Origin: Mobula hypostoma
Taxonomy: Eukaryota
Length of the DNA: 64,000 bases
Reading direction: 5' to 3'
NCBI RefSeq assembly: GCF_963921235.1
Contig: NC_086108.1
Span: 41,976,001 to 42,040,000 of the forward strand
Part shown: piece after piece, positions 10,151 to 64,000 of the stretch
Position numbering within the stretch: the stretch's first letter is position 1
Layout of the letters: each line of letters opens with the position of its first letter
The notes under the pieces: generated by a model
What the model saw: only the letters and a program-made list of their open reading frames with translations
Told to the model about the DNA's origin: nothing
Databases searched by the model: none
Program-made: the position numbers and the translations under genes

Positions 10151-11510
10151 ATATGTTCTAAACCACTAAATGGTTTGAGTAATTCATTCTTAACTTAGGC
10201 TCTGCTGTTAAGATATCAATTAATGGCACTCGTCCACTCCAACCAACATAACCAACATCTCAGTATCTCTGATTTATTTTTCTTAATACTCTGCACCCTG
10301 CAGCCAGTTCATCTGGACTCTAGAGGCACCCTGCCTCCAGATCATTGTTTGAATGAAGCTTTTTGCTACACTTGTTAATCTGACATTCTCTGGCCACAGA
10401 ACCATTGCTGAAGGGAATACAGATGGGCCTTGGAAATCTATCCTATCAGGTAATTAATTTCTTCCTGCACTTGAAAGCAGCAGCCAAAGATGTCCCAGAT
10501 GAATGTGGAGCTCTCTGGCTAGCACGCTGATCCCCAAATATATGCATAGAAGAATTATTTGGTCCCCCTGATTTAAGAAAGGATATATTCACCTTGCAGT
10601 CAGTCCAAAAAAAATTTGCAGAACTCATTTGCTGGAATGAGAGGTTTGTCTTATCACAAGTGGCTAAAGAAATGACCGTAGTTGAAGAGCTGAGGGGCCT
10701 ACACTTACTCTTTTGTTTAATGCTCATCTGGTTCCTCCAGATATTGCAGAGCACAGATTTTGCCAGATATACTCTTGACCTGTTACTAACTGAATTTAGA
10801 AGCAGGCACATAAAGCTGGTTTCAGAAAAAGGAAAGAAAACAAACAAAATCAAAATATTGTAATTAAATGCAAACCTTTTCAAAAAAGTTTGTCTGCACT
10901 TGATAGCACATGGTCAAAAGCACAATACTAAGAACAGGACGAAGAACACTCAAATAAACATTTGTCAGTAAGAAACTTCAGCACAACTGCGTGTAATTTA
11001 AAAATGTGCTTTCTGCCAAATTTCCTGGAAAAACAATCTACAGCACAAGTCAAAAATTTCACCCACCATGAAAATACTTCGAGATCATAAGACCAGGTTA
11101 CAAGTTCACTGAAAAGCAGATGTCAAAATATTCCTATGTTCCACTGCCAACCTGTGAACTATAAATGTACTTGTAAAAAATGACAAATTAGTCTTTACCA
11201 GTCATGGAATGCTACTGAAAATAAAATGCTCATATTCCTATTAGTTTAATATGAAATGTTTCTGAGTATGGACTGGAATTCAGAGAATAGTCGTCTGAAT
11301 GGACAGAGCAAGTTAAATATACAGACATTTAGAAAAATACAATAGAATAGTATCTAACATTATTTAAGCAATGCACCCTATTGAACAGTGAAAGAAGCAA
11401 ACATTTGTTTTTATAAATTCATGACTGTATGTTCAGCGGAGACATCTTATGGGAGCACTCAAAGAACTCATACCCTAACAATGTGCATTGGAAGAAGCCA
11501 TATCACTCAC

Positions 11511-11631
11511 CTGCAGGGAATTCAGTATCACAAAGATATACGCCATCACAACAGAAAATGGAACAAGTACTCCACAGAGCCACGTGAGTCCCAAAATGGG
11601 CAACAGTACCAGCACCGCCTTCACAGCAGTC
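11511..11631 (-). CDS. ADGRD2: ADGRD2 exon 19: TM6 and first half of TM7
   Basis: RTAVKAVLVLLPILGLTWLCGVLVPFSVVMAYIFVILNSLQ; acceptor ctgttgcag, donor gtgagt. Confidence 0.95.
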
Positions 11632-14600: not shown

Positions 14601-17600
14601 ACCCCTCATAATTTTATAACCTTCAATGAGATGTACATTTCTGTAATAGCTCTTGCAAATCTCACACAATCTGTTCCAACTGAATAAAGGCCCAGTTGCA
14701 TAAGTTTTAGTGTCAGCCCTCATCCTGAAGTTCTCAGTCCAATTCTTAATAAGATGTGGTTCAGTTATTTTCCCCCAAAGGAGTTCATCAATAAGAGTTG
14801 GACTACTTTTACTCAGAATATATTTCACAAACTCTGCATGCACTGTCCCATACAACTCGAGGAGTGTCATCCATTTTCCCTTCTAGACATCCAAGCAGTC
14901 TCTCCAGATAAAGCAGCAATCTCGTGTACTTCTTCCAATCTCATCTAGTGCATTCACTGTTCACAATGTGGTTTCCTCTATTGTGGAGAAGCCAAATGCT
15001 GACTGGGGGATCAATTTGTGGAGAAGCTGTGTTCACTTTGGAAGAATGCCCCTCCATTTCCCTGTCATTTTAATTCACTGTGCCTCGCTTTATTCTGACC
15101 TATTTGTGGTTCCTACACTGTTAGGGAAAGTTCCAACACAAGTTTGAGGATCAACACTTCACATTCTATCTGGGCATATTGCAGTCTTCTGTATCAAAAT
15201 CTCCAACTACAGTTCACTCACTCTTTCTTTCTGTCTGAAATGGCCACTTCTGCCTGTCATCATTATTTCTTCTTGTCTCCCAGCCTAACTATTGACAACA
15301 TATAACACAAAGAAACATAGTAGGCTTCTAACTGTTACATTAACTCATTACGATTCACCCAATTAGAAGAATGCTTGTCCTAAAGCACATCTAGGAAACT
15401 CTCAGTTTTAACCTGCATGCAGCTGGCTACAGATCTAACAATGGTGAATTTATCACACGAACTAACTGGTTAATTAACTAAGCAACACACATCAAAGTTG
15501 CTGGTGAACGCAGCAGGCCAGGCAGCATCTATAGGAAGAGGCGCAGTCGACGTTTCAGGCCGAGACCCGAAGCCTCTTCCTATAGATGCTGCCTGGCCTG
15601 CTGCGTTCACCAGCAACTTTGATGTGTGTTGCTTGAATTTCCAGCGTCTGCAGAATTCCTGTTGTTTGCGGTTAATTAACTAAACTTTGTTTACTTTTCC
15701 GTTATAATGTCCCTTTAAGCTCCTGACTTAAAACCATTTTCTTTCTGTTATATACAGTAGCTAAATCATGTGCATGCTATCAAATATTTGGAAGAACGTA
15801 TCAACAGATTGGCAGCACCAAAATATTTGTTTCCCTGCTATGTAATTATAGGAAGATTGAATAGTATTTTTGGCACCGAGCAAGGTTATGTCTGTCTTGC
15901 ATGACCAACACACGATTCTAATAGCATTAGGAATGCTAGCAATCTATGGCACAATGTCTACTGTATGTGGGCACACTCACGTTACATCACACCCGATTAT
16001 TATGCATTTTGTGAACTGTTAGAACAGCCTGTCTGAATAACTAGAAATATGCTTATAAATTCCTCCTTGTTTAGGCTAGGACATCATTACTCCACTTGCC
16101 GTGAACGTGTTCAGGTAAAAACAAAGTGTAGCCAAGTGCATATTCTCTCAATTCACTGGACTTTCATAGAACCACTAAGGGATATTTAAAATCCATTGTT
16201 CTTACAATACAAATTATAAGTAAGAAAACATAGTAGTGTACATGCTACGAATATATATATATAGTGATATATATTTACTTTAAACTTTAACATTTATGTC
16301 CCAATGGTTACATCCTCTTGTACTCTTTAAATTTGGACACTGAGACTTCAGTTGTCAGTGTTAAGCGGAAGTTAAAATCAAACTTGCCAAATAATTTTAA
16401 ATAAGCTGAATACTACAAACCATAGTTCACATTTTACATAAATTGGGCATTTATAAAACAGCATCATTTATTTCAACAATATACAAGTGCAGTATTAACA
16501 ACCCAAGTTGGGAATCTATACTCTCCTGATCAAAATACTATAGTTCTCAAGTAACCTACCCCATCCAATAAGGTAGTAATATTTCATTCTCCGTTCCTCA
16601 CTCAAATTGACAGTTACTACTTTACTCCAGAGAAGCAGCCCCTCCACCATCATCCACGCAAAAGCGGCCATAAAGAATAAATGCAGGAGCGCAGTAACAG
16701 CGGTGCAGGCAGTCTAGAAAAAGATGCAACAGATTACTTTTCTCATTAGTATTTTGACACATTAATTGTCACATTATCAATCTAGGGCAATGTGTGTTGT
16801 GTAAATGTCAGCTGATCATGTCTAGGCAACAAATACAAAATGCTGGAGGAACTCAGCAGGTCAGGCAGCATCGACGGAAAGGAATAAACAGTCAGCGTTT
16901 CAAGCCAAAACCCTTCACCGTTTATTCCTTGCCATAGATGCTGCCTGTCCTGCTGGGTTTCTCCAGCTCTGGATACCCAGCATCTGCAGAAAGTCTTGCG
17001 TTTGTGAGCTGATCACGTCAGGCTTGACTATGTACTGCCCCACTGCTAAGCTGTCATGATGGTGCTCACTAACTGGACTCATTTACAATAAAATTACATA
17101 AGTTGGTCTGTAGGATCAGTGGAGCTCCCAGTCCACAGCTCTGCACAGGTCCACAGTGCATTACTCTACATTGCTTGGAGATCCAGGAAAAGGCAGCAAG
17201 GGGAGGAAATGCAATCACAATTTCACCCCCCCCCCAAACAAACTACACCAGCCCAACAAACCCTCCAACTTATTAACACCCATAAATAAGAAAAATTTTA
17301 ATAAAATTCAGGAGGGAAGTTCAACCGAACTCCTACCTGCTCACGAAAGTGGATATAAAAGATCCCATGGCACTATTTCAAAGATCACCCAACATCATTA
17401 AAATCAGAGGTTATCATGAGCACATTGTTGTCTAAGACAGTATTGTGCACAAATTACCTGCTGCATTTCCTGCATTAAAATAATGACTACACTTCAAAGG
17501 AGTACTTTACTGGGCTACAGAGCACACACTATGCAAATGCAAGTTGTTCTTTGATTACTTACAGCACTAAAAATGTACTTGTTAGAATTTCCTTGTTAGA

Positions 17601-20600
17601 ATACTTTGCCATTCAGTCATGATCATGGTTAAGAGTTGTTACCCTGCCGCTGCCTAAAAGGAGTTTGTACATTCCCTCCTCCGAGTACTCCGGTCTCCTA
17701 CACAGTCCAGAGGCATACCAGTTGGTAGGTTCATTCAGGGGTGCAGTGCTAGCCGGAGCACACCAGAGCACGTCTTTAAGAAAAAAGCCGAAATAAACAA
17801 GCTAATTAATTAGGTGCCGCCCAGGGTGATTTGAGTATCTCAGAAACTGCTGATCTCCTGGGATTTTTACACACAACAGACTCTGGAGTTTACAAAGAAT
17901 GGTGCCAAAGACAAAAAAACATCTGGCGAGTGGTTGTTCTGTGAGCGAAAACATCTTGTTAAATCCACTCACTGGATGATTTTTTTTTGTTTTTGGCACC
18001 ATTCTCTGTTATCTCCAGAGTCTGATGTGCGTAAAAATCCCAGGAGATCATCAGTTTCTGAGATACTCAAATCACCCTGGGCAGTACCTAATTAACTAGC
18101 TTGTTTATTTCGGTTTTTTTCTTAAAGATGTGCTGGACGCGCTCTGCTGCGCTCCAGCTAGCACTGCACCCCAGGTTCATTGGTCATTGTAAATTGTCCT
18201 GTGACTAGGCTAGGATTAAATGGGGGATTGCTAGGCAGCACGGCTCAAAGGGCCGGAAGGGCCTCTTCCACACTGGATCTCAATAAATAAATAACAAGAG
18301 CTGCTCCGGTAAGATGGCCGCACGTTTGGATGCAGCAGCCTCTCTGGGGCTGACCAAGGGTGTTTTTGTCTTCTTTAAGTGCCTTTTTTTATGATCACAA
18401 GACAACGGGGACACTAAGAACTTCAAGTTCTGCAGGAATACCCCAACGGAGAGCTGCTTGTTTGCGGGGAAGCTAGAGGAGTTGGACTTGGTGCAGGCCT
18501 GCTACAGAAAAGTGTTGTAGTCAGTGCGTGAAGGCAGTGTGCCCTCTAATAGCGAGTGATTTTCTTAGATGTTTCACTTGTGATCACAAGACCCTGTTGG
18601 ACATTGGTAATGTAAAATACTCCAAGTTCTTTTCCCTTGTTTATTGGGGGAACTATGTGAGCTTGATTGTAGAGAGGACCAGACCTCGTCATGAGCTTGC
18701 CTGTCATGGCAGTCCAGGAGAGGAAATGCCAGAGGTCATGTAGCCTGGCATCTATGCTGTATACATTTACCGTTAACTTATATGTGCTATACTTGTGTTG
18801 TGCTATGTGTTACACCTTGGCCCCGGAGGAACATTGTTTCATTTGACTGTATTTATGGGTATTCATGTGTAGTTGAATAATTAAACTTAAACTTGAATTT
18901 AACTTAGGTGTCAATGTTCAAGATAAATTGATTCACAGAGCAAAGCAAAAGTATGATAGACTTTGATCAGAATATTGCTGATCGCAATCTCCAAATGATA
19001 TCCCTTGTCTTAATAGAGGTACATGAAAATATTCTTTATTTATTCATTTATTTTTAATTAGAGATACACCACTGTAAAAGGTTCTTCTGATCCATTGAGC
19101 CTGTGTCACCCAGTTACACTCACGTGACCAATTAGCATCAACACATGCGTCTATTGGGATGTGGGATGGAACCAGAGCGCCCGGAGAAAGCCCAGCAGTA
19201 ACAAGGAGGACATACAAACACCTTACAGACACCGGTGGGAGTTCAGCCTGGGTCACAGGCACTGTATTACTGTTATACTGATGACTACATTACATTTAAT
19301 GTTTATTCTCAAAAGTACTGTGCCAGAGAGCATAATATTCCAGATCTCTCTCTCTCTATTAATAACAGTACAATGCTGCTCAACCATCTAAATAGCTCAA
19401 TTATTTTTATCATATGTACAATAGATACTGCTGACATGCTTAAACATTAAAGGCATTCTAGTAAGACAAGCTGCTGTATCACAGAGGCTCAGCATACCTC
19501 ATTGTCTGTTGCCGAGTTGCTACTCAGTAACACTACCTGTGCTGCAATCAGAGCCACAAACAAGTTTTTGTGAATGGAGGTTCGATCAGATTTTGGAATA
19601 CTAGAGATTTAAAACAGAAAGAGAAATTACTCTTATTTGACATTTATGCTACCTGAAGGAAGGTGTTCACCTGATGACTGTGATTGGGATCGTATAATGC
19701 AACGGGAACACTCCCACATCGTACCACAAAACAAAAAACTTCTGTGTAGCAGGAATTAATAGCATATGCACTGTAAAATACTTACTCCAGTACAGTGAAA
19801 AGAATCAAGGTCACCAATAGGGCACACAGGGAGGCTCCAGATCCGATGAACGTCAGTTTATTTAAAATCATCTCCGTTTCCACGCCCCACTGCACAGAAC
19901 AATACAATGTTCTAGAAACTATTGAGTTAATACAATACAGCAGACACCAATTTAGAGTTGTTGCCTACTCCATATAATTCATACTAAAGATAAATCCATA
20001 GAGAACATCTATTTTATCTTTTAATACCCGTGCCCTTTCATCACAATTGTATCCCATGGTTGTTGGGAGAATGGAACCAAGTGAGGAAAAGCAGAGCTCT
20101 TTGTCTCACTGATCCCCTCATGGTTCACACTCTGTCCAAGTCTTGCCAAAGCATAATCACACTTTGCTGGTTTAACCTAAACCTAAAAGACAATCGATCT
20201 TCAGAGAATTCTACGGTGTGTGCCTGTCTCCCTGTCTCAGTGTGTCTGTGTTTGTGACTGTGTGTGATATGCAAATAGTAGCAAAAATACAATGTGACAC
20301 AATTGAAAAAGAATTGAAGGTAACAAATAATTCGGGACACTTGCTCAAAACATTTGTGCTGATAAATTTTGTGGTGTAATTTTCAAACACTTTTATAATA
20401 ATCAATGCAATCGGGTAGATAAATTTGTGTTGTGATCATAATTTATCTATATTCTTGGTTCAACCTTCATTTAACGTGGGAAATGCTGCTTTTCACAAAG
20501 TAACAGCCGCTATTAATCACATTTGCTATGTTCAGTCGCAACATGTCACACACAAAATATTCTTTATTGACCTGTGGGAGGTATGTCTAATTGAAGTTAG

Positions 20601-23600
20601 ACTAGTTTTCCAGGAGTTATGCTGCATTTTCAGAAAGGCTTTGTTGGTCCAGCATAGCAAGTGTTCCACAGGCATTGATACATGAACACAAAGCTCTGTA
20701 TTGTTCCCAAAGTGTATAATCTTTCCCAAACCATTCAATCATGCATAAATCTCAATTTCTTAGGTCACCCTGCATGATATGGACTGATTAATGCCATTTT
20801 CATTATGGGTGAGAAAAAAAGTGATCAAAGTTCCCACACATCAGTCAAATACGTATGCCAGAATGGAAAAATTCTCTATCTTTGAATGGAATGAAAATTC
20901 CTCACCTACTCACAACCCTACCTGTATCTCGGTGTACTGCATCAACACAGCAAAGTTAGTTGTATGGCTACAAAAGCAGACTGTGATTTCCGACTCAAAC
21001 TGGACCACTTGGCAACCCTGGCTTGACCATCCGGCATAACGTCCATCTCTGAAATAAGCATAATACAATATCCACTCTCTATAAAAATAGAATTTTCAGA
21101 GACAGATATCTTATCAAATTAGTAGCTAACTACAAATCAGATTTATATTGAAAAGGCATCTCAGTCATACAACCAAGAACCAGGCCCTTTATGTCCATGC
21201 TACTGACTCATCTATACAAATCCCATTACAAGCACGCAGTCTATAGCCTTCTGCGCCATAACAACTTTAAGTGCTTATCCAGATACATTTTCTAATGCTG
21301 AACACCCTGAATTAACTAACACATAATAGTATACCTGCACCTTTTAATTAAGCTAATAAATTAACCAACATGTGAGAGAATCAAGAGGGTCACTGATTTT
21401 ATCTTCTCAATACTAAGTTATTCAGCTTTGAAGTAATGGGTTCAACTAATTTGTTGCATTAACAATGCAGCCACAGAGTGGTGCAGCCAGTAAAGTCATT
21501 GCCTCACAGTTGTAGTGACCCGGTAATGCCTGCACAGAGTTTAAACATTCCCTGAGTTGGCTTGTATTTCCTCGGAATTATCCAGTTTCCTCCCTTATCC
21601 CAAAGACCTACAGATTGTAGGTAAGTTTGACATCGTACATTTCCCTAGTGTGTGGGAATATGGTATAAGCTGCTGGGAGCTGATGGGAACTTCGAGTGAA
21701 TGACGTGTGACCAGTACAATTGGGTGGTTGGCACAGAGAAAGTGGAGTGGACAATTCACTGACTATTGGACAAGGTGAAAAGTCATGCTTGGTTCCTTCT
21801 CTTCAACGTCCAGTAGACCAGTTTGATCGGAGTGGTATTCATTCCATTACTTGCTGATTACAAGGGAAAAGTCAGTAGGAAAATCTAATTTATTCTCATG
21901 TCAATCTATTTGGAGACAGGAGTAAATACAGAAAGTGCAATCAGAATCAGAATCAGATTAATTATCACTTTTGTAGGACGTGAAATTTGTTGTTTTGTCG
22001 CAGCAACACAGGGCAAAGACAAAAATCTATAAATTTAAAAAATAAATATTGTAAAACAAAAGGAATTACGAAGTGGTGTTCGTGGACTATTCAGAAAGCC
22101 GATGATGGAGCGCAGGAAGCTGTCCCCAGATCATTGAGGGTGGGTCTTCAGGTCCTGTACTTCCTCTCTGAAAGTAATACTGAGAAGAGGGCACACCCAG
22201 GGTACTGAGAGTCCTTAATAATGGAGATGGATGCCACATTCTTGAAATACAGCCTCTTGAAGCTGTCTTCATTGGTGGAGAGGAGCTGGCCAAGTCTGTA
22301 AGACTCTGCAGCCCCTTGCAATCTTGTGTATTGGAGGCTCCATGCCAGTCAAAGTGCTCTCCATTGTGCAGCTATACAAATTTGCCAGAGTATTTACCAA
22401 ACCTTCTCAAACGCTTAACAAATTAGAGCCACTGCCATCCCCTCTTCCTGATTGTATCAATGTGTTAAGCCCAGGATGGATCGTCTGAAATATTGATGCA
22501 CAGGACCTTCAAGCTGCTCACCAATGGCCCCACAATGAGGACGGGTGTGTGATCTCCCAGCTTCCCCTTCCTGAAGTCCACAATCAATTTCCTGCTCTTG
22601 CTAGCACTGAATGACTTTTATTGTGATTCCCTTAATACAAGTAAGCTCTTGACAACTTGCTATCCTGCTTACTTGGGGAAGCACTTTTTGGAGCATTAAT
22701 CATTGACTGAATTAGATTGAATACATTTCATCACCAACTGCAAAGCACAGGAATAATGCAGAACCTGATGGGCACCTATTCTTGTTAAGTGTTCACAGAA
22801 TGCAGTAGTCTGCTCTGAATAAATATGTTGTACTTACTGAAGACTGAAATTCCAAAATACACATGCTGGAATGGCAAATTTAGAAAATCCAACCTTAAAA
22901 TGAGGAAAACACAAACAGTTACTCAAATTGGCCAAAATGAGCACTAGATATCATTCATATTGTTTAAAACAAAATAACTCCAACATATCTGAACATTCAA
23001 GTATGTTTTCAATGAGATTCTATTTATTTACTTTATGATTCTAAAATATGTTACCCATTGGTTATAATTCTATAATTGATGTTTCAAAAGGCTATCTTTT
23101 ACAATAATAAAAGTATATGCAGATTGAATACCCCTCAACTGAATTTCTAAAATCCAAAAACTGCACAAATCCAAAATATTTTGAATGATGACATGACTTC
23201 ATAAATGGAAAATTCCACAAGATGCTAGGTAGATTCCCAGGCCTTGCACAGGTCTCCACATAGCACAGACAGTTCTAAGCAGTGAGCTCATATATGTAAT
23301 AAACAGAAGTTAATGATAAATAGAAAAACACGGCATAAAGCAAGAAATGAAGATCTTGCTCATGCATCGATAAAATGAATCTATCAGCATCGAAGTAAAC
23401 ATATACTGCTTAATGGTATACTGATCACGGAACAAGCAAAGATCTATCACAATGAACTGAAAATTGAAAGTAGTTCTGAATATTTAGAAGGCTGGTTGCA
23501 AAAATTTAAGAAAAGGCACAGCACTAAATTCTTAAAAATTTTAAAGGTAGAGCATCTGATGATTATGAAGCAGCAGAAATTCATTGATAAGTTTGCAAAG

Positions 23601-53600: not shown

Positions 53601-56600
53601 GATGGGAGATCCCCTGAGCGGATAAAGTCGGTGATGGTGTGGGTGACAATGGCCTGGTGCTTCTTAGTGGGGTCACGATCGAGGGGTAAATAAGAGGAGG
53701 TATCCGCGAGTTGTCGCTGTGCCTCGGCAAGGTAGAGGTCAGTACACCAGACTACAACAGCACCCCCCTTATCGGCGGGTTTTATAGTAAGGTTAGGATT
53801 AGTGCGGAGGGAGTGGAGAGCAGAGCATTCGGAAGGAGTGAGGTTGGAATGGGGACAAGGTGCGGTGAAGTCGAGACAGTTGATGTCCCATCAGCAGTTA
53901 GCAATAAAAAGATCCAGAGCAGGCAGAAGACCAGAGTGGGATGTCCATGAAGAGGAGGAGGGTTGAAGACGGGAGAAGGGGTCATCGGTGGGGGTGGGAG
54001 AGTCCTTGCCGAAGAAGTAAGCTCGGAGACGGAGCCGGTATAAGAAGAGTTCAGTGTCATGGCACACGCGGAACTCGCTGAGGTGTGGGCGCAAGGGACA
54101 AAGGTGAGAGTCTGCTGGGGTGATATACTGTGTCCGGTGCTCCCGGTGTGGCCTTCTATATGTTGGTGAGACCCGACACAGATTGGATGACCGTTTCGCT
54201 GAACACCTACGCTCTGTCCGCCAGAGAAAGCAGGATCTCCCAGTGGCCACACATTTTAATTCCACATCCCATTCCCATTCCGCTATGTCAATCAATGGCC
54301 TCCTCTATTGTCGAGATGAAGCCACACTCAGGTTGGAGGAACAACACCTTATGTTCCGTCTGGGTAGCCTCCAACCTGATGGTATGAACATTGATTTCTC
54401 TAACTTCCATTAATGCCCCTCCTCCCCTTCTTACCCCATCCCTAATTTTTTTTCTCTCTTTCCCTCTCACAATAACTCCTTGCCTGTTCTCCATCTTCCT
54501 CTGGTGCTCCCCTCCCCCTTTCTTTCTTCCAAGGCCTTCCGTCCTACGATACTCCCCCTTCTCCAGCCTTGTATCCCTTTTGCCAATCAACTTCCCAGCT
54601 CTTAGCTTCATCCCTCCCCCTCCTGTCTTCTCCTATCATATCAGGCCTCCCCCTCCCCCTCCCCCTTTCAAATCTCTTACTATCTCTTTTTTCTGTTAGT
54701 CCTGATGAAGGGTCTCGACCTGAAACATCGACTGTACTTCTTCCTATAGATGCTGCCTGGCCTGCTGCGTTCCACCAGCATTTTGGTTGTGTTGCTTGAA
54801 TTTCCAGCATCTGCAGATTTCCTTGTGTTTGCTTTATTGAAATAACCTGCTTTACAACTAAGTCAAGAACTACAGAACCCCAAACTTATGTCTGATTACT
54901 TTGGAGTGTATTATGACAACCCTTCATCAACCACCATCGCAAAGGTTAAGTTTTAAAAAGAGCATTCCCATTCCCCCAAAAAAAAATGGAAGAGTTATTC
55001 TTCACTCATTACCTTTACACTGGGAAAATCCCTTGTGCACATGCACTGTTGACTCAATCTCAAAGGCAGAGAGGTTCCATTGAAAATATAATCCCAGTGG
55101 AACAACCACACAATCTCCTGCTAAAGCCTGAATCTCACTGGCATTCAAAAGACGATCCCAGATGTGGAGTTGTGTAATATTCCCAATAAAAGATTCATCC
55201 TTCTTAAACGATCCGCCAAATGTGTCTTGCTCTTGTCCGATGATGAAAACTCCACCGGCTCCAATATCTTCAGAAATATAAAGATGATCTCCAGATGCAG
55301 TGACGGATCCATCTGCTGCAATAGCCCAGCTACCACCATGGCTGGTCCAGCTCAAACACACATGATGCCATCTACCATCATTCTTCACAGCTTGAGAGTA
55401 AGGAGTGTGGACACCGTGGACCAGCAAAGCAAGTTGGATTTGTTGATCATGGACAATGTTAGCACGCAGCTGAAACTCATTGATAAATGATGGTATTGAA
55501 TAGGAAAATACAGTGGAAACTCCCACATAACTTGAATCAAATTGCACTTGAGCACAAATAGTCACTGAATGCATTTGAGGAAACTGCCTGAGAAGTTTGG
55601 CATATTTGGTGTCAGTTTTGGTAGAAAATGTCAGAATGTGTGATCCAAAGGTACCTGAACAAAAGAAGATGAAGCAATGAGTGCACTGTGGTACCTTTCT
55701 CATTACAGCAGTCTTCCTTAATCAAACAATTTTCTATTTTTGTAAGTTTACATTTGAAATGTTTTTTCAGCTTTTTTTTAGATGCTCACAGTCTACATTA
55801 ATAAACTTATGATTAAAAAAATCCAATACATTTTATCACAAATTAAATTTACTCAAAATTATCACTATTCCTATTTGAACAAAGACAGGCACTAGTCCGA
55901 TAAGGAAGTTCTTTATGAAATACTTAAACTTCAGCTATTACATCACAAAGCAAACATTTCTCTGATTAAGGAAAAATACTTTGAATGATTAATGATGAAT
56001 AATTACAACATTAGGACAGTCTCCAATTCTAAAAGCAATGACCTAGGATTAATATTTCTCACTTTAACAAATTAAATGTTTTGGTTTAATGTCAGCTATA
56101 ACCTAATTTTGTCACAGGAATATGCATAATTTAAATAAATTACTCACTGAGAAGAAATCAGAATAAATATTATCAAGTTCATATAAACGAAATTCTGACA
56201 AATTACATATATATGTTTTGATAGAAATTCTATCATTTTTGCTTAGAATCTTTGATTATCAGAAGTCATCAAGAAATTTATTAAATTTGATAAATTTATT
56301 ATCAAAAGACATATACACTGTCTGTCACCATATACAGTGCCAGGATTCATTTGACTCTCTGGGTTGTATCTGAGATATCTTGCATCAGAGGTGCTTTGTT
56401 GTAGTGCCTTTAACATTCATAGGTGGTAAAGTTAACTGAATAGAAAGAATACATTTTTAAATTTACTACAAAGGATAGATGGGAGGTGTCTCAAAACTTC
56501 AGCTTATATATGAAAGAAGTTGTAATTATTTCAAAAAAATTCTTTATCCAGCATGAGGGAGAAGTAGAAAGCAGCTTCCAGACTTCACCTGAACCATTTT

Positions 56601-59600
56601 ACAGCCAACTAGTTTTATTTAAAATATAGTTTGATACTTTGCTGCATGGTTAGCCTTCTGACTTTTCCTCCATTCCGATAGTAAGTTGGCTGCCTCTGCG
56701 CCAAGCATTGACGTAACAAAAAGAAGACTAGTAACCCTGTGCATTCCACAGTTCTGTAGCACAATGCATCAGAGCTCCATGGCACCAAACCACTCAAGAT
56801 GTGGCTTCTTTATTTATGGTTTATGTTACAAAGATCAACAGTGTACAACCATCTTGGTTGAGGGGGAGGGGTGTGGAGTTGGAAGTAGGAAAAGGCATTC
56901 AACGCAGATGTATCCACCATCGATCACAATGCATGATACCCCAGTAAATGTATACATGTCTCTTTAATGGCTTCATTTCTCCTCACAGTCATACTCCAGA
57001 AGGTCCCTTCAATTTGTAGTCATTCTTTTTAAGAAGTTCTGTGTCCGGTTACCAAGGTTGAACTTGACTTCTCCCAGCTTTCACTATTTTAACATTGTCC
57101 TGCAATCAAGGCTTCAGTGAGAGGAACTCTAGGTTCCATGCATGCACCACGCAGAGACATTCACCATCCTACAAATTGCTGGAGGAACTCAGTGGGTCAG
57201 GCTTGGAGTCCCAGATTTTAAGTCTATTCATTCTTCCAGATTTCTATTAAGTAAGTTCCCAGTATTGACTTGGTAGCTAGCCAGCTTAATAAAGTTGCAA
57301 ACATCTGCAGAAACCCGAAGAGGTATGTTCAATAATCTGAAGTCAGCTATTGTTGCATCAACAACCCATACTTTTAGAGAGCCATTAGCAAGTCAAAAGA
57401 TCTCAAAATGCTTCAGTGTACCAATATCAAAGGAAGTAATCAGGAAGAAGCAAGGTTTATGGAGAATCTTGAAGGAAGAATGAGATGGAGAAAGTAATAA
57501 GATGGAGAACTTCAGGGTGAATTTTGACTTCAGGCCCTAAAAACATAAAGAAACTGAAAAAAGGATTTGAAAACTCAGTGGACTTCATGAAGTTAGATGC
57601 TTTCTGGTTATTTTCAACTGTTGTGATAGTGGACAGAAATCCGAAACTTTTTCAGAACAGCATCCCTGCTGCAGCCCACTGGAAAGGGCATGGGCCTAGA
57701 TTCAGTAGCAAAGTGATGGTACTCGTCTTCGACTGGTATTCGTTCCAGCAATTTCATCTGAAGCCACCAATGTTAATGGGTCACATAAATGAGAATAGAA
57801 AGAAACAGCAAGGAGATTATAGAAGCTTCCAAGGAAAGGGTAAATAGAAATCTATTAGAAATGTTCAAGATCACAGTTAAAACTGCCTATAAGGACCCAA
57901 CAATCCCTGTGGTGTTGTCTTCCCTCTTCCTAAGGTTAGTTGCAGTCAGGTATCTGTTTAAGGAATCCCTGCATCCAACAACATCAGCCTGGCTGGGTAA
58001 TCAAAGGCATTGGAAAGTTCTTGCAAAAAATTAATGTTGAAAAGATAAACACAACATAGAGGTAGAAATGAAATAGATATTTCTGAAATAAAAATATAGT
58101 TTAACCTATATTTAGAAGTACTTAGATGAGAAAATTATATTCTACCTACATTAAGCCAGATATTTTGCTAAACAATAAATATATCCAGGTTTACCATTAA
58201 AAATTCATGCACACTAGTGGAATAACTGCATTTTTCAAATTATTATATAGCCAAACTATTTTAGAACAAAAAGAAATCCCTTCAGTTTACATCAGTTGCC
58301 AGGATTGGGATGAATTGACTACAAAACAGAACAACTCATTGGTAAATTCAGCAGTCAGTTTTACACCACAGACCTCTGGAAATCCCAAAGATACTCAGTT
58401 TCAGTCATGTACAATATTTAAAGCTCTGGTGGAAGACCATTAACCTGAAATTAAGCTTCTGATTCTCTCTCTACAGATGCTGCCTGACCAGCTGAACATC
58501 TCCAGCATTTTCTATTTTTTGTCCTAAAGTACAGATTGCTGCCATTATACAAAGGAGAATCTAAATCCATAGTTGCTGAAAAATTGCTCTATTTCCATTA
58601 TCCCATCATCTGAAGAGGAAAAATTACCTGTCTATGAAACAGCATATTAGTCTGAACCACTGTCTTGGCAAATTTTACTTTAGTGATCAACTTTACTGGA
58701 TTTTACCAGATCAATTGATAATTCTCTCTCTAGGGGCAAACATACAGATGAAATGTACAATGAACACAATGAAAGGCTCTGAACTAACACAATATTATGG
58801 ATTTATTTTTAAATTGATCTTATCCAGAATTATAAGATGAAACAAATTTTGAATTTAATTTCATTCAGTCAGTAAATTTGTTTAGAATTTTCCAGGTGCA
58901 TCAGATTGTGTGATACAACTGTCGTACACTTGCTTAATGTTCCATCAATTTTATCTGATGCCACCATTGTTAATGGGTCACATAAATGAGAATAGAAAGA
59001 AACATTCAATTGAATAGCAAAGAGATGATAGAAACTTCCAAGGAAAGGGTTAAATGGAAATCTATTAGAGATGTTCAAAATTATAGTTAAACTGCTATAA
59101 TCTAGCATCCAGCTGATCAGAAATCCAGTTGGCCCAGCAACTGGCTCAATCATTAGTTGGACTGTGAGGACATGTGGAGTCAGGGCTGGGGTCCAGACTT
59201 TGGGTCAGTTATGCTCTAGAGCAGGAGCATCAGGGGTCAGTAAGGTGGAGCTGGGGTCTGGAGTCCTTTAGTATTTCCTGTTCCCTTTATTCTCATCTGC
59301 TTCCATAGAAATTTTACTGCAACAGAGTGAAATAAAATTGTGTTTGGTTATTGATAGGAGTATCATCAATAGATCAGCAAATCTGATAGTCCGGCATGAC
59401 AGATAGTGCCAGATGATCAGATGTGTCCTGTGGGAATGGGAAATAGTTTCCAATGGTAGCAGCTCGAATTAAGCTTATTATCAAAGTACATACATGTCAC
59501 CATAACCCACTTGAGATATATTTTCTTGCAGACATTCACAGTAGGTACAAAGAAACACAATAAAATAAATGAAACACCGCACGCAACAAAGACGGACTTA

Positions 59601-60838
59601 CAATCAAAGTGCAAAGAATTTAAGCTAATCGATAAAAGAAATTTTAGGACCTCGGGAGATATACTTTTAACGAAATTTCATGATTTTAGTTAGATGTGTG
59701 GAAGCAATTGGAAGAGGTAGGGCTGATAGATAAAGCTCTTTGAAAAAGCAGACACGGGCATCAAGAGTCTAATGGCTTCCCTCCGCGCTGCTCGATTCAA
59801 AGACGTAAGAATGAACGGGACAGATAAATGTGGCCGTATTTAGAAATAACAAACCGAAGCCATGGCATCTGTACCGCCTTCCGATAAGAGCCACATCCCT
59901 TAGCTCTCGTTTCCTGCACAAGTCCCACTATCCCTGGATTTCCTTAATATCCAAAGATCTATACAGCTCGCTGACAATTTAGCCACAGTTAATCGCAAAT
60001 CCATAAGAATGATTTTTACTCTGAAAGACAGAGCATCAAACGGTCAATTTGATGTATAAAAAATTGTGTCTTTTTTTTTCTTTATTAGCATCCCCAACAA
60101 GCATTTTGGGACGTTTACTCCAGTGAAAATACGGCATAACTTTGGAAGGTTTCACTACTGTAATTACTTCGATTATATTCCCAGTATGACCGCGGTGATA
60201 TGTAAAAGAAATCTACTCCCAATATAACCGAATAGATGAATGTCTTGAACTAAAGGTTATAAAGACATTTCAAATCGACGGGCATGATGTCACTGTTAAG
60301 TTTAAAATCATTCTTAGTGGAAAAAAATGATAAAATAAAAAAGAGGCGATGAATAATCTCACCAGGACCCGCCTCTTTTACTTTGGCACCAATCCACACT
60401 GTCTCCTCCACACCAATGGACTTCATGAAGCTTGTTGTTTTCTGGTTATCGTCAACTGTCGCGATAGTGGCCAGAAATCCAAACCTTTGTCGGCACAATT
60501 TCTCTGCAGCAGCCCACTGGTGTTCCTTTGGGACATAAGTATAATAGTAACCCCGGTAGAGGTAACACGGGCCGTCCAGCGTCGGCAGCTGCGAGTCTGG
60601 GGAGGCTGAGGAAAGGAGGACACTTTGTAACGACTAATTTCTGCACTTAAGTTCAAATGCTTGGTGACGCTGTTGGATCTACTCACCTGCCAGCAGGCCA
60701 GGGACACAGAAGAACTGCGGGCAAAAAAAAAACACTAATTGTCATATAAACAAGAAGCTTGATCACTGAAATAAAGTAAAATAAATCGTTCTCATTTACC
60801 AGAATAGCCGAACATGGAAAGACCGTTCCCACGTGCAT
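11511..60838 (-). CDS. ADGRD2: Adhesion G protein-coupled receptor D2-like gene (GPR144); 19 coding exons found, 3' end not located
   Basis: Manually spliced exons with GT-AG sites and consistent phases give a 976-codon open frame: signal peptide, CTLD halves, pentraxin, GAIN/GPS (CVFWN...W...GC...CFCSHTTNFAVLM) and 7TM with IPKSDRTSIHKNL, MVEGLLLWSKVV, CWLNVHNGVIWAFVGPV and VLVLLPILGLTW. Pentraxin plus these TM motifs fits subfamily D, recalled as D2. Confidence 0.9.
12080..12195 (-). CDS. ADGRD2: ADGRD2 exon 18: TM5 end and ICL3
   Basis: VNMFVLTRVVLITMSTAKRRAIMLAVNSSPMEQAYDQI; acceptor gttgtgcag, donor gtaaga. Confidence 0.93.
12690..12835. mobile_element. Old, diverged PLE-type fold-back remnant
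   Basis: Imperfect palindrome (ggatcaagcagca.ctgtggagg versus cctccacagatgctgtttgatcc) resembling the younger PLE fold-backs. Confidence 0.5.
13038..13171 (-). CDS. ADGRD2: ADGRD2 exon 17: TM4, ECL2, TM5
   Basis: GIPVLIVTITLAAAHDKYIADRYCWLNVHNGVIWAFVGPVIFIIM; acceptor gattttag, donor gtaagc. Confidence 0.95.
14010..14590 (+). mobile_element. Penelope-like element 3' fragment with decayed hammerhead motif
   Basis: C-terminal end of the PLE ORF (LEEQHLIFWLGSLQPDGMN) matching 54120..54413, pyrimidine-rich UTR, CTGATGA at 14459 with GAAA lost. Confidence 0.8.
14880..15215 (+). mobile_element. Older PLE GIY-YIG fragment
   Basis: Decayed match to the GIY-YIG coding region of the 51617-54832 element (tgttcacaatgtggtttcctctattgtggagaagcc). 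Confidence 0.55.
15482..15669. mobile_element. Short PLE fold-back insertion with 14-bp TSD
   Basis: Inverted arms of the PLE 3' end; TSD GGTTAATTAACTAA at 15468-15481 and 15670-15683; hammerhead core deleted at the junction. Confidence 0.88.
16560..16713 (-). CDS. ADGRD2: ADGRD2 exon 16: TM3 to start of TM4
   Basis: TACTAVTALLHLFFMAAFAWMMVEGLLLWSKVVTVNLSEERRMKYYYLIGW; acceptor tttttctag, donor gtaggt. Confidence 0.95.
16823..17006. mobile_element. Older PLE fold-back with TSD
   Basis: Imperfect palindrome; TSD AGCTGATCAYGTC at 16810-16822 and 17007-17019 (one mismatch). Confidence 0.75.
17640..18295 (+). mobile_element. V-SINE (HE1-like) split by a MITE
   Basis: ggagtttgtac...ctccgagtactccggt.tcct...cagtcca...ggtaggttcatt resumes after 18174 as ggtcattgtaaattgtcc...aagggccggaagggcct...aataaataaataa. 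Confidence 0.65.
17736..18173. mobile_element. Palindromic MITE with hAT-like ends and captured Tc1 transposase fragment
   Basis: About 195-bp inverted arms starting CAGGGGTGCAG; 8-bp TSD GGTTCATT; arm translates from 17831 as LSISETADLLGFLHTTDSGVYKEWC (Tc1 HTH-like). Confidence 0.8.
19498..19600 (-). CDS. ADGRD2: ADGRD2 exon 15: ICL1/TM2
   Basis: DIPKSDRTSIHKNLFVALIAAQVVLLSSNSATDNE; acceptor tctctag, donor gtatgc. Confidence 0.92.
19786..19889 (-). CDS. ADGRD2: ADGRD2 exon 14: TM1
   Basis: WGVETEMILNKLTFIGSGASLCALLVTLILFTVL; acceptor tctgtgcag, donor gtaagt. Confidence 0.92.
20922..21048 (-). CDS. ADGRD2: ADGRD2 exon 13: GPS motif and Stachel peptide
   Basis: DGRYAGWSSQGCQVVQFESEITVCFCSHTTNFAVLMQYTEIQ; acceptor ttatttcag, donor gtaggg. 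Confidence 0.93.
21940..22615 (-). mobile_element. Rex1/Babar-like LINE 3' fragment
   Basis: (tcagaa)n tail on the + strand and similarity to 24660-25400. Confidence 0.65.
22838..22893 (-). CDS. ADGRD2: ADGRD2 exon 12: start of GPS motif
   Basis: VGFSKFAIPACVFWNFSL; acceptor attttaag, donor gtaagt. Confidence 0.88.
23120..24030 (+). mobile_element. Tigger/pogo-family DNA transposon, internally deleted
   Basis: TIRs CAGATTGAATACCCCT.../...GATAAGGGGCACTGAACCTG followed by TA; transposase remnants GWLQKFKKRH and KFIDKFAKIVTDENLTPEQVYNAD. Confidence 0.85.
24410..24560 (-). CDS. ADGRD2: ADGRD2 exon 11 (GAIN)
   Basis: SENNRYNLIYYDSNLQASQLQTAVISSTVRDPVRGRNIPTAVQYSLSHRAV; acceptor tttttgcag, donor gtaagc, phase 2 to 0. 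Confidence 0.85.
24660..25965 (-). mobile_element. Rex1/Babar-like LINE, RT-containing fragment
   Basis: VMKSFERLV...LDQLQF, LSPLLY..YTHDC...KFADD, VSSFEFLGV...FYRCTMERILT in ORFs 25653..25967, 25314..25631 and 25006..25326. Confidence 0.85.
26020..28400 (+). mobile_element. CR1 LINE with decayed ORF1, endonuclease region and a 3' piece
   Basis: CxxC and esterase-like ORF1 remnants, CVYFNASSIVGKADEL endonuclease start, GDFN motif, CR1 3' region at 28260-28400. Confidence 0.8.
30237..30333 (-). CDS. ADGRD2: ADGRD2 exon 10 (GAIN)
   Basis: GYEDLIFIHAYYRSVEHHLAPHNVLVAGRTDR; acceptor cacttccag, donor gtaagg, phase 1 to 2. Confidence 0.82.
31775..31909 (-). CDS. ADGRD2: ADGRD2 exon 9 (GAIN)
   Basis: DVQMKASQLSSLENGLIYKPTCLSARDRVDEVRVPGSEISRLFTS; acceptor ccttgtag, donor gtaagt, phase 1-1. 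Confidence 0.82.
32150..34520 (+). mobile_element. Cluster of decayed CR1 fragments
   Basis: Endonuclease remnants, 3' segment (cagagggtggtgaatctgtg), RT remnants (KSCLTNL, QGSVLGP). Confidence 0.7.
35519..35726. mobile_element. Short PLE fold-back with 12-bp TSD
   Basis: Inverted PLE 3' arms; TSD AGATATAAAAGT at 35507-35518 and 35727-35738. Confidence 0.88.
36075..38425 (+). mobile_element. CR1 LINE containing an antisense CR1 3' fragment (about 36492-36985)
   Basis: LNALSIQNKV...ITE endonuclease, AILDWVLCNEP...LGASDHNMI, CR1 3' end; nested minus-strand ERVQRRSTRML...RGDLIEAYKI. Confidence 0.85.
39943..40142 (-). mobile_element. tRNA-derived SINE with CORE-like domain
   Basis: Minus strand: A box TGGCCAAGTGG, B box GGTTCGGGCC, then GTGTCCTTGAGCAAGGCACTTAACC. 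Confidence 0.7.
42004..42115 (-). CDS. ADGRD2: ADGRD2 exon 8 (GAIN)
   Basis: VIPGPYVIIQSIDMLTEKLSGILLSIKPSIVLSTDNI; acceptor cttgcag, donor gtaagg. Confidence 0.85.
42510..44465 (+). mobile_element. CR1 LINE 3' half with nested insertions
   Basis: CLKNLLE, DVVYLDFQK, KFADDT remnants and CR1 3' tail. Confidence 0.82.
43215..43640 (-). mobile_element. Internally deleted Rex1-like element with (TATC)n tail, nested in CR1
   Basis: (gata)n at 43218-43242; endonuclease-like LTVLANNGWCNPGHITIEERVC. Confidence 0.55.
44585..44869 (-). CDS. ADGRD2: ADGRD2 exon 7: helical GAIN subdomain A region
   Basis: ISDYLLLNRSDYPPDV...DLLALIRFLGNVA...EWLIISE within ORF 44489..44881; acceptor ttgctccag, donor gtgaga. 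Confidence 0.85.
45762..45847 (-). CDS. ADGRD2: ADGRD2 exon 6: EAYEQMQVFTSLLPSAFFLHIKERSTEVS
   Basis: Strong acceptor ttttctttttcag and donor gtaagt; phase 1 to 0 fits both neighbours. Confidence 0.75.
46200..46592 (+). mobile_element. PLE 3' UTR fragment with decayed hammerhead
   Basis: Pyrimidine-rich UTR, CTGATGA...caaaacatcgactg, terminal aagatttccaacatctgcagaatctcttgtgttt. Confidence 0.7.
47350..48115 (+). mobile_element. CR1 LINE 3' fragment
   Basis: YKMLV...EYHVQVWPPCYRKDFIKLERVQRGF in ORF 47495..47692. Confidence 0.8.
48931..49125 (-). CDS. ADGRD2: ADGRD2 exon 5: C-terminal half of the C-type lectin domain
   Basis: GDGFQTTEPFDVVWVDG...ECIALNSLSGAWTSEECSKQKQALCRYSK; acceptor tttattttttattccatggaag restores phase 1, donor gtacat. 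Confidence 0.8.
51680..51715 (-). ncRNA. Minimal type I hammerhead ribozyme motif (intact)
   Basis: AGUC-CUGACGA-AGGGUCUCGACCU-GAAA-C-GUC-GACU: stem I AGUC/GACU, core CUGANGA and GAAA, palindromic ACGU in place of stem III. Confidence 0.75.
54698..54733 (+). ncRNA. Minimal hammerhead motif with CpG-type decay (ACGT to ACAT)
   Basis: AGUC-CUGAUGA-AGGGUCUCGACCU-GAAA-C-AUC-GACU. Confidence 0.6.
55013..55654 (-). CDS. ADGRD2: ADGRD2 exon 4: pentraxin/LamG-like domain
   Basis: Within ORF 55002..55703: TVFSYS...DGRWHHVCLSW...FIIGQEQDTFGGSF...SFIGNITQLHIWDRLL; acceptor ttttgttcag, donor gtaatg, 642 nt, phase 1-1. Confidence 0.93.
57752..59100 (+). repeat. Diverged ~140-bp direct repeat pair (57752-57891 and 58951-59100)
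   Basis: Shared gccacca.tgttaatgggtcacataaatgagaatagaaagaaaca...cttccaaggaaagggt...aaatctattaga.atgttcaa. Confidence 0.8.
60363..60605 (-). CDS. ADGRD2: ADGRD2 exon 3: N-terminal half of a C-type lectin domain
   Basis: ASPDSQLPTLDGPCYLYRGYYYTYVPKEHQWAAAEKLCRQRFGFLATI...VWIGAKVKEAGP; acceptor tttcctcag, donor gtgaga, phase 1-1. Confidence 0.88.
60687..60714 (-). CDS. ADGRD2: ADGRD2 exon 2: FFCVPGLLA (28 nt, signal peptide end)
   Basis: Acceptor ttttttgcccgcag, donor CAG|gtgagt, phase 0 to 1. Confidence 0.8.
60800..60838 (-). CDS. ADGRD2: ADGRD2 exon 1: MHVGTVFPCSAIL (signal peptide start)
   Basis: ATG at 60838, donor CTG|gtaaat, phase 0; joins the next exon into a hydrophobic leader. Confidence 0.65.
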
Positions 60839-62152
60839 ATCCTGTTTGGAAAAAAGTAAAAAAAAATGTAAAAACAAGAGTTTCCCCGAGATTAACTGGG
60901 GAAAACTGCGCAAAACGGGACGTGCGGTGTTTAAAACGTCAAATGGTATCCCTGGTGTCCCATACTTTTGGCAACAATGAACAGGCAATTGATTTCTCAT
61001 TTGTCCTGACTGTCATTCCCGACTCTGCGGGAGATCGCAGCAAATTTCCACTAAAATAACTTACACATTTCCTCAGTCTAGCTTTAAGTGGGCACAATAA
61101 GTGTTTAGTTTCCTATTACTCATTCAAATGACAAACTTTCCATTCCCTTATTAATGTTTCTTTGCAACATTAAAAATTGTTCAAAATTGGGAATTTATCA
61201 ATATTATTACTTGTGAACTTGCCTTCTTCATTGGTCATACACCCAGCCCTGAAATGAATTACTTTGCATTTTATCGAAGGGTGCATTGAAAACTGCGTTA
61301 TGGGGCTTTCCGAAGTTGCTAAGAATCAAAGGGGCAAAATGCGCGGCGAAGAGCTCTGGTGCTGCCCCATCTCCTACCGGGTTCTTAGTCAATGCCGAGC
61401 AGGAAGCCAGACGGAATCCCAAGTCATCGGTCATTTCCCTCGCAGACCTTGTGTCCAAGAGGAGCCAAGTCATCCACTGTCGCCGTACCCCATCCGTACG
61501 TTGTCGCCAACACCTCGCTTCCGTCCTAATCTACATCCTTTTCACTTCCACGAGTTCTAATATCCCTTTCGCTAACGTTTCCTTTAATTTTGGTACTCTA
61601 CAAATGTGAGCCTGTTGAAAAATCCCGCATCCTTCTTTCCAGGAGCAGGTCCGAATCTGACTACGACTTGATTCCAAGACTACCTATTGCCATAAATTGC
61701 GAATACTGTAACAATATTTCACCGGGAAGAAAAGTGCGCAGCAACCTATCAGCGGAGCTCTGCCACCGACTGACACCTCAATTAACCTATCAAGGGTGGT
61801 AATGTTTCGGTACTGGGAAAAATTGCAACGGGGAGTGAAACGGGTATCCGTTAAGTTTATGGGACCAAAGTTAAAAGGTGCCGCGTCGAAGCAAATCACC
61901 TTCGGACCTAAAGGAAAAAAAGCTGTTGCTTTGATGAATGAGCCTAATAAAACACATGTTGGTCATCTTTCGTTTCCAGAAGTAGACAGGGTTTCTAGTA
62001 TCACAACCGAATGAAACGCTTATTCAAAGAGATTGCGATGGACAGTATGACCAGCGGCCATCCTAGAGAAAGGAAAACAGGGTTAACATGTAAAACACAT
62101 CAAAGTTGCTGGTGAACGCAGCAGGCCAGGCAGCATCTATAGGAAGAGGCGC

Positions 62153-62188
62153 AGTCGACGTTTCAGGCCGAGACCCTTCGTCAGGACT
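62153..62188 (-). ncRNA. Minimal type I hammerhead ribozyme motif
   Basis: Reverse complement of AGTC-CTGACGA-AGGGTCTCGGCCT-GAAA-CGTC-GACT. Confidence 0.75.
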
Positions 62189-62242
62189 AACTGAAGGAAG
62201 AGTGAGTAAGGGATTTGAACACACGTCACTCTTCCTTCAGTT

Positions 62243-62278
62243 AGTCCTGACGAAGGGTCTCGGCCTGAAACGTCGACT
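62243..62278 (+). ncRNA. Minimal type I hammerhead ribozyme motif
   Basis: AGTC-CTGACGA-AGGGTCTCGGCCT-GAAA-CGTC-GACT; predicted cleavage after GUC at 62274. Confidence 0.75.
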
Positions 62279-63430
62279 GCGCCTCTTCCTATAGATGCTG
62301 CCTGGCCTGCTGCGTTCACCAGCAACTTTGATGTATGTTGCTTGAATTTCCAGCATCTGCAGAATTCCTGTTGTTAACATGTAAAATTGTGGTTTTTGCT
62401 GTTATTTTAAATCACAGCTAGGCGATAGAGTTTAAGTTGCGAGGTTTTTAAGGGACAACAAGAGAAAAGGTGAAGATTCGAACCACAATGGAAATCGGGA
62501 AAGTTTAAATGACCAAAAGGACTGGGACGAGTGAAGAAATAGGAGCGTTTTGAGGAGGTACAAATGGGTGAAGCAGAACAGTCTCGCCGACAGCTGCAGT
62601 AGTGGCTAAACATGTACAATCTACAACGAAGACAACGCGGTAGAAATCGGAGAAGGAAAAATAAACATGAAGAAATAAGTGGTGATGATGTGAAGTTTGA
62701 ACGAGATAAAAAGAAACGAACAGAGGGGTCGCGTGGAAGAGTGGCTTGAAGGGAGTGGGTAATGGATGATTAAAAGTGAATTGGGGCGTTATGGAGGATA
62801 CTCCGTAGGTCAACTTTAAATGGCACCTCCATTTATCTTCCTACAGAGGCTGCCGGATTCACCAAATATTTCCAGCATTTTCGGCCCTTGTTTTAGATTT
62901 TTTTTATTGTCGTGCAAGATTACTTTATAGGTTTGATAGAGAGGTGAGCATAATTGCATGTGAAATCACACTAAGAATGCTGGGGATGACTGAGGATGAT
63001 TTCACTGCGATATTGGGAAGCAAGAAAATCATTCCTGATTTATGGGAAGAGATGAGAGTGACAGGTAGCGGACCCTGTAGGATAAAATTCTCAACTGCGG
63101 TCCGAAGGACTAATACGTAACAGAATGCACCATGTGACTAAATGAGATGAAGACAAGTGAAAGGATTAGCGTTCTGAAGAGAAGCAAATTACAAGTGGCA
63201 GTCTTTGGGCTTTCACTTGGTAGTCTTCACTCGATAATTGTTGACAACAAACTTCCGGTAGAGTTACAGAGAAGTCAAAGAAAATAATGCAAGATTCTGT
63301 GAAATTGTGTTCACAGTGAGGACAAGAAATAAATGATGGTCAACTATTCTTAAAAGTGAGAGATGGGATCCCTGTTGAACCCGAGCAAAGAATTTATCCC
63401 ACGTGTAGGCAGGCGTAGATACACTCGCAA

Positions 63431-63444
63431 GTTGCCATAGCAAC
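63431..63444. promoter_or_regulatory. RFX X-box motif
   Basis: GTTGCCATAGCAAC, 13/14 match to the palindromic consensus GTTGCCATGGCAAC. Confidence 0.6.
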
Positions 63445-63823
63445 AGCTTTTATGTGGAGATCTTAACGAGAATCAAAGGAGACGTTGTTCAAAGCAAGAA
63501 CTAATTCATTAAGGTAGAGGAGGACAACGGTGATCGTTTTGAATTTATTGAGTTTCTGTTCAAGAAAGAATTAGACTGCCTGGCTTTCCTGATTGTAGAG
63601 TAATACTGGAGGCCAAGAGAAAAAGGAGACAATTAGAAACTGTACCAAAGAGCATTGGGTATATTAGCTGGTATAAGCTGAATCAAAGGAAGAGAGGGTT
63701 TAAAACAGAAGGAAGAAATAAATTCTAAGAACAAGAATAGGCTTTGGTTGCGACGACAAGATCAGTCACACTTGTCACCTCAGGAAGAGGGATGGTAGTA
63801 GCCAAGTGAGTTTGAGAAGATCG

Positions 63824-64000
63824 AGCAACACACATCAAAGTTGCTGGTGAATGCAGCAGGCCAAGCAGCATCTATAGGAAGAGGCGCAGTCGACGTTTCA
63901 GGCCGAGACCCTTCGTCAGGACTAACTGAAGTTAGTCCTGACGAAGGGTCTCGGCCTGAAACGTCGACTGCGCCTCTTCCTATAGATGCTGCTTGGCCTG
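63824..64000. mobile_element. Young PLE fold-back (cut off by window end) with hammerhead motifs at 63888-63923 (-) and 63934-63969 (+)
   Basis: Perfect palindrome over the visible part, with a 2-nt spacer (63928-63929); both hammerhead cores intact. Confidence 0.9.

Follow-up and report, generated by a model that had tools for sequence, protein, structure and literature searches.

A 64,000-nucleotide stretch of the genome of the ray Mobula hypostoma (contig NC_086108.1, positions 41,976,001 to 42,040,000; ‘the window’ in what follows) carries six insertions, lettered A to F, in which two copies of the 3' end of one Penelope-like element (PLE) are joined head to head. We infer that these ‘fold-backs’ are 5'-truncated insertions of a high-copy, endonuclease-positive (EN+) PLE, mostly the products of independent events, and not a family of miniature inverted-repeat transposable elements (MITEs) of a DNA transposon. 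They likely form by a staggered cut of both target strands, priming of reverse transcription from both 3' ends at two sites on the element RNA, and end joining of the truncated cDNAs. The layout is ordinary for PLEs; its value lies in testable regularities, seen here in four to six copies.

Five of the fold-backs are complete and the sixth, F, is cut by the end of the window; all were found where the initial annotation had placed them. From A to E, 188, 184, 208, 3216 and 277 bp separate the flanking repeats. The target-site duplications (TSDs) of 12-14 bp that had been proposed are real features of the sequence: direct repeats flank five of five complete copies, among them that of copy C, AGATATAAAAGT, an addition to those given earlier, and comparable repeats arise by chance at a rate of 0.16% (20,000 random position pairs). 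The two arms of a copy differ at one of 63 aligned columns in A (at the junction edge), 6/81 in C, 2/117 in E, 0/71 in F and 43/693 in D, where 16 of the mismatches are in CpG context. Copy B has 14/64 and, in addition, an internal deletion in its right arm (about 16917-17006). This range points to copies of several ages and at least two subfamilies. One base is common to both arms of F and differs from copies A and E.

The Penelope-like identity claimed for the family is borne out by the 3.2-kb copy D, which contains reverse transcriptase (RT) and GIY-YIG sequences. Its long arm matches RT plus GIY-YIG proteins at ~52% over the RT and 45% over the linker and endonuclease (EN), in three frames, and in these relatives the domain order is RVT_1 followed by a C-terminal GIY-YIG. 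The GIY-YIG profile PF01541 matches the tail-bearing arm of D (54108-54410, E 3e-5); a Pfam search of the window's own RT pieces gave no match. The DKG motif of the RT, and the CCHH motif with two cysteines between GIY and YIG, were read by eye in the translations (definitions from the available part of PMC8557442). The open reading frame (ORF) of the long arm thus spans RT, a CX4CxxC linker and a GIY-YIG domain with CCHH. The linker motif, C-x4-C-x2-C, lies in frame 1 and recurs in three of four relatives inspected; according to the same portion of PMC8557442, a CX2-5CxxC linker between RT and EN marks Neptune and Nematis, and not Penelope/Poseidon. The matches to the long arm included no named Neptune or Nematis reference element. 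Judged from its letters, then, the element is an EN+ PLE with a Neptune/Nematis-type linker, the clade label coming from the linker motif alone: the RT-GIY-YIG order and motifs, an inverted pseudo-long terminal repeat (pLTR) with one tail, and a TSD with a single-copy empty site are all present. A direct pLTR, the mark of a partial tandem, was not found within the window, where the sole long copy (D) is 5'-truncated.

The pLTR also has the core letters of a minimal type I hammerhead (descriptor from the available part of PMC4209133) and, in the predicted fold, stems I and II, but with z-scores of -0.02 and -0.72. An Rfam search found no hammerhead family, only sub-threshold microRNA hairpins, and none of six pieces from the hammerhead and the tail folded better than shuffles, so no structural claim is made for the tail.

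Arm end points were compared on a common ruler, with A, C, D and E entering the offset measurement. The offset between the outer ends of the two arms is 35-37 nt in A and 35 nt in both C and D. Copy E has an offset of 36-40 nt, each of its ends lying ~3-6 nt further in, where short stretches match the target. The left arm is indeed the inverted 3' end without its tail, as first described, and what is missing comes to 35-37 nt rather than 30-35. The right arm is the complete end, except in copy B, the internal deletion of which makes its tail offset unmeasurable. Exactly one tail is present in all five complete copies and in an old, decayed copy (arm-to-arm score 53.5 versus a shuffle maximum of 37.5; tail 30.5 versus 29). 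In five copies (A, B, D, E and F) the tail-less arm extends further 5' than its partner; C is the exception. Six distinct central junctions bear out the claim that each copy is truncated at a different point: C and F have 2-nt microhomology, B and D ~1-3 nt (by eye), and A and E have 3 and 6 extra bases, respectively.

The TSDs had been described as partly self-complementary, and those of the five complete copies are partially symmetric. In the best 12-bp register, 22 of 30 pairs are symmetric, compared with means of 13.6 for shuffled TSDs (p=9e-5) and 16.3 when the centre is free (p=1e-3). The flank of copy F does not fit (1/6), and with it the total is 23/36 (p=1.1e-3). This test was post hoc, devised on data already seen, and covers five or six sites. 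No fixed ATT cut motif is visible by eye at the edges of the five TSDs. The longer end lies on the right in all six copies (p=0.031), as the initial annotation observed; in the old copy it lies on the left, the count becomes 6/7 (p=0.125), and we do not retain the orientation bias as a general rule.

Related genomes supply a direct view of one unoccupied target. Contigs of four sequencing runs (X1, X5, X10 and X13) were compared with positions 50500-64000 only; X10 was too shallow to use. In the listed pieces, organism B differs from the window at 179 of 9881 letters (1.8%) and organism D at 642 of 8260 (7.8%). Empty orthologous sites had been suggested as a check, and for copy E the check was made. 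Record 30 of X5 aligns with 59537-62081 and then with 62373-63825 at consecutive record positions, with no letters between: organism B is without E, and the 14-mer occurs there just once, so the repeat is a true target duplication. Past 63825 the same record continues with 80 unlike letters, and copy F is probably absent from organism B as well. Among the pieces listed for X13, some end at 62081 and 63818, as they would if E and F were both missing there. Contigs of X1 and X5 enter both arms of D, which is therefore present in both. Record 17 of X13 starts at 54841, just past the one TSD mismatch of D, and this start, with the 208 letters that precede it, may indirectly represent an empty site for D. 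A direct empty site is thus available for one (E) of the two complete copies within 50500-64000. The arm divergence of D (6.2%) falls between the two species distances (1.8% and 7.8%), as expected if its arms were alike at insertion.

Table 1. Positions of the fold-back insertions and of the host gene in the window.
Feature	Position	Strand	Remarks
Copy A, left TSD	15468..15481		14 bp; 14/14 identical to right TSD; final two bases also fit element end
Copy A, tail-less arm	15482..15568	-	partial hammerhead core
Copy A, tail-bearing arm	15572..15669	+	preceded by 3 extra junction bases, 15569-15571
Copy A, right TSD	15670..15683		direct repeat
Copy B	16810..17019		older subfamily; TSDs 16810-16822 and 17007-17019, 12/13 identical; left arm 16823-16919
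Copy C	35507..35738		12-bp TSDs 35507-35518 and 35727-35738, 12/12 identical; arms 35519-35601 and 35600-35726; 2-nt microhomology
Copy D, left TSD	51604..51616		13 bp; 12/13 identical to right TSD
Copy D, long tail-less arm	51617..54107	-	5'-truncated, frameshifted ORF, then 3' untranslated region (UTR) and pLTR end
Copy D, tail-bearing arm	54108..54832	+	GIY-YIG region, 3' UTR, hammerhead core ~54697-54734, 35-nt tail
Copy D, right TSD	54833..54845		direct repeat
Copy E	62082..62386		14-bp TSDs 62082-62095 and 62373-62386, 14/14 identical; arms 62096-62219 and 62226-62372; 6 extra bases between
Copy F	63824..64000		cut by window end; left arm 63824-63931, right arm from 63930; 2-nt microhomology
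Old decayed fold-back	~12683..12836		tail on left; flanks have 7 letters in common
ADGRD2 (adhesion GPCR D2), host gene	7483..61434	-	exons placed by tblastn with two ray ADGRD2 proteins

According to the interpretation that we favour, a protein combining GIY-YIG and RT would nick both strands of a mostly AT-rich site with a stagger of 12-14 bp. Each free 3' end would prime its own cDNA on the element RNA, one at the end of the tail and the other ~35 nt inward. Both cDNAs would terminate early and then be united by end joining, through ~1-3 nt of microhomology or with 3-6 extra bases, and fill-in of the staggered cut would yield the TSD. A PLE from an anole has been shown in vitro to cut and extend both strands and to begin reverse transcription at two sites with the tail between them; its protein is a predicted dimer (available text of PMC11167929). 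The inverted pLTR, the tail of 30-40 nt, the TSD, the two RT starts and the cutting of both strands are already published (PMC3846280, PMC8557442 and PMC11167929, in their available parts), and the literature bears out the initial annotation where it took inverted structures with a short tail to be established for PLEs (PMC3846280, PMC8557442). What goes beyond print is the near-constant arm offset, the longer tail-less arm and the partly symmetric targets. These rest on four to six copies and favour two-ended priming, which the initial annotation had proposed and which stands as the best reading, inferred rather than demonstrated.

Several points weigh against this scheme. The evidence base is six copies only, and no intermediates were seen. 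The greater length of the tail-less arm, in five copies of six, is not significant (p=0.22), and the variable junctions could stem from later deletion of palindrome centres. Published views, as set out in the available parts of the papers, favour sequential nicking (PMC8557442) or self-priming on an antisense template (PMC3846280). Finally, among the best-supported 15 of the 8159 joints between contig pieces, several have depths of 109-634, versus 9-16 for single-copy contigs, and some junctions may therefore be common to tens of copies; depth here is not equal to copy number, and some joints are uncounted. The statement that this is not a MITE family consequently holds in the window, where all six junctions differ, and is not yet cleared genome-wide, given joint depths of up to 634.

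The same joints speak for an alternative that derives the short fold-backs from longer fold-back ‘masters’, which were either duplicated in full as non-autonomous units or later lost their centres by deletion. Joints such as 52155 to 54191 (depth 634, X5) and 62156 to 62249 (depth 289, X1), with 2-4 nt of microhomology, would fit this model, and long perfect palindromes are unstable. The window offers six different junctions instead; 8159 joints imply great diversity, though some are not fold-backs; E and F, which are young and missing from organism B (F probably), are short already; and the outer end points vary, E being pulled in at both ends. We consider descent from masters unlikely.

Self-priming is more doubtful still. 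Here a single cDNA primed at the target, or an antisense template, would loop back at a palindrome and serve as its own template for the inverted arm, as was proposed for Adineta copies that have palindromes where the inverted parts meet (PMC3846280, available part). Such ‘snap-back’ would explain identical arms, the base common to both arms of F, and the junction microhomologies. It requires the tail-bearing arm to be the longer one 5', which is true in one of six copies (C). In the five others the longer tail-less arm excludes snap-back of cDNA from the tail-bearing arm, a deduction of our own. The tail-less arm of copy D has 1.8 kb without counterpart in the other arm, and copies A and E have extra junction bases and no priming hairpin. 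Equally improbable is sequential target-primed reverse transcription, in which a first nick primes cDNA and the inverted arm follows from a later nick, accompanied by template switching on a partial-tandem transcript or a second RNA, the two ends being uncoupled: TSD lengths do vary (12-14 here, 8-10 in Adineta) and are held to mirror the variable spacing of first- and second-strand cleavage (PMC8557442, available part), but the range is narrow, the target partly symmetric and the arm-end offset near-constant, and the five complete copies and the old copy have exactly one tail.

Within two-ended priming we entertain, tentatively, a coupled version on a single RNA. A PLE dimer would sit on a partly palindromic target of ~12 bp and nick it symmetrically, with its two RTs ~35 nt apart on the RNA; the trailing, tail-primed RT would displace the leading cDNA, and the same 3' region would be copied twice. 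This would account for the single tail, for the offset kept in E and for the longer tail-less arm, and also for the base common to the arms of F and for a ‘tail-only’ joint found in organisms A and B. The joint in question, 62186 to 62341, occurs in X1 and X5 and unites non-overlapping inverted pieces; its short side is only 21-23 letters. One RNA or two per insertion are both compatible with what we see.

Other joints were discarded as a measure of which arm is longer, because a contig over a fold-back junction maps equally well if the two arms are exchanged; the tail-only joint alone carries information on this point. In keeping with two-ended priming, loose contig ends cluster at 54785, near the tail-less end, in three of four runs (513, 470 and 811 contigs), and 477 are listed at the tail end, 54831, for X13 only; the letters beyond are AT-rich at both. 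Summed depth at 62325 in X1 reaches 4.7 million versus ~16, a figure not convertible to copy number. Joints of 54820 and 54832 to 57171, in three runs, lead from a tail end into the beginning of an inverted arm, and suggest tail-to-tail or adjacent insertions elsewhere in these genomes. Pattern scans for further copies returned 0 and 3 loci in genome contigs, 1 in viral contigs, and 0 and 6 in metagenome contigs; all 10 were rejected as chance matches, being GC-rich and alike at the seed only.

Other PLE remnants lie in the window. Older tailed 3' ends occupy 14010-14591 and ~46240-46597 on the plus strand; neither solo end (at 14591 and 46597) has an inverted partner in the flanks tested or a convincing TSD. 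More decayed end fragments are found at 2421-2475, 57170-57202, 58424-58532 and 62836-62881, and 57295-57316 resembles a tail remnant. As collapsed fold-backs, 2421-2490 and 57170-57316 were not confirmed, and both are excluded from all counts.

The window is vertebrate DNA of 34-51% GC, and within it a pentraxin exon has matches of 99-100% among the ADGRD2 proteins of devil rays and stingrays. The introns of this gene hold copies A (15482), B (16823), C (35519) and D (51617), and an exon edge at 16713 is 97 bp from copy B. Two young hairpin insertions, copies E (62096) and F (63824), precede the first matched ADGRD2 codon by ~0.65 and ~2.4 kb, both less than 2.5 kb upstream of it. The C-type lectin region of ADGRD2 has another, weaker match (40-46%) at 57487-57693, possibly a duplicated exon. 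Two neighbouring elements have inverted repeats of their own. A hairpin at 17736-18174, with 157-nt arms at 92% and, by eye, a 7-8 bp flanking direct repeat, we take to be a hAT-type MITE. A 128-nt inverted repeat at 92% (2495-2622 and 4830-4957) surrounds an ORF piece (4160-4771) that presumably represents a long interspersed nuclear element (LINE) endonuclease, and the whole may be a 5'-inverted LINE.

Short PLE fold-backs are liable to be confused with MITEs or with microRNA hairpins. The family is young, very abundant and different between close species, and so supplies empty sites and paired ends in bulk; ray genomes hold very many such termini, and coupled priming can be tested by counting alone. 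A fixed offset and a symmetric target, if true genome-wide, would give the geometry of PLE integration in vivo and connect this geometry with the pair of RT starts observed in vitro.

Comparison with known systems places the fold-backs among the PLEs. Like MITEs of DNA transposons they are short, palindromic, TSD-flanked and abundant. MITEs share a uniform length, a common interior and equal terminal inverted repeats, whereas the ray arms are unequal retroelement 3' ends, the centres of the six copies in the window all differ, and the coding sequence in the long copy is for RT and GIY-YIG and not for a DDE transposase. In LINE-1 twin priming, the inverted pieces are non-overlapping. The ray arms overlap by 63-693 aligned columns and have no poly(A); they are two copies of one and the same 3' region, and the position of the second start hardly varies. 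The processes are alike in that both ends of a staggered break prime cDNA, with a head-to-head join and the TSD outside; the LINE-1 product differs in its poly(A) end and variable internal priming sites (bioRxiv 10.1101/2024.12.14.628481, available part).

Among PLEs, an inverted copy with a 30-40 bp tail is typical, by a mechanism called undefined (PMC8557442, scheme in the legend to Fig. 2), and both PMC8557442 and PMC11167929, in their available parts, treat the origin of the inverted ends and the tail as an unsolved question. The literature searched, mainly open-access, contained no report of this family in rays, of symmetric PLE targets or of PLE twin priming, and the portions available of PMC8969392, PMC12910113 and bioRxiv 10.64898/2026.07.22.740005 held nothing on target geometry. 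The closest parallel is Pen2a/Pen2 of Adineta vaga, with inverted pLTRs, a 31-bp tail, TSDs of 8-10 bp, an empty site and proposed self-priming (PMC3846280, available part). These copies and ours have in common head-to-head 3' ends of which only one has a 30-40 nt tail, 5' truncation, a short TSD and an empty site with a single TSD. The ray TSDs are longer (12-14 versus 8-10 bp), and the ray copies are very short and very abundant (six in 64 kb), with no direct pLTR seen in the window. Target symmetry and a fixed arm offset, both suggested by the ray copies, do not appear in the part of the Adineta description available. PAc, a Poseidon element of Anolis carolinensis (PMC11167929, likewise in part), belongs to the Penelope/Poseidon clade, without the CX2-5CxxC linker that is present in the ray element; its insertion ends are given unpaired, without TSD lengths, and with no reported difference in start site between the strands. 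It resembles the ray element in its AT-rich targets and, if the favoured scheme holds, in the cutting and extension of both strands by a predicted dimer and in two RT start sites that delimit the tail; its pLTR contains a hammerhead, of which the ray pLTR has the core letters.

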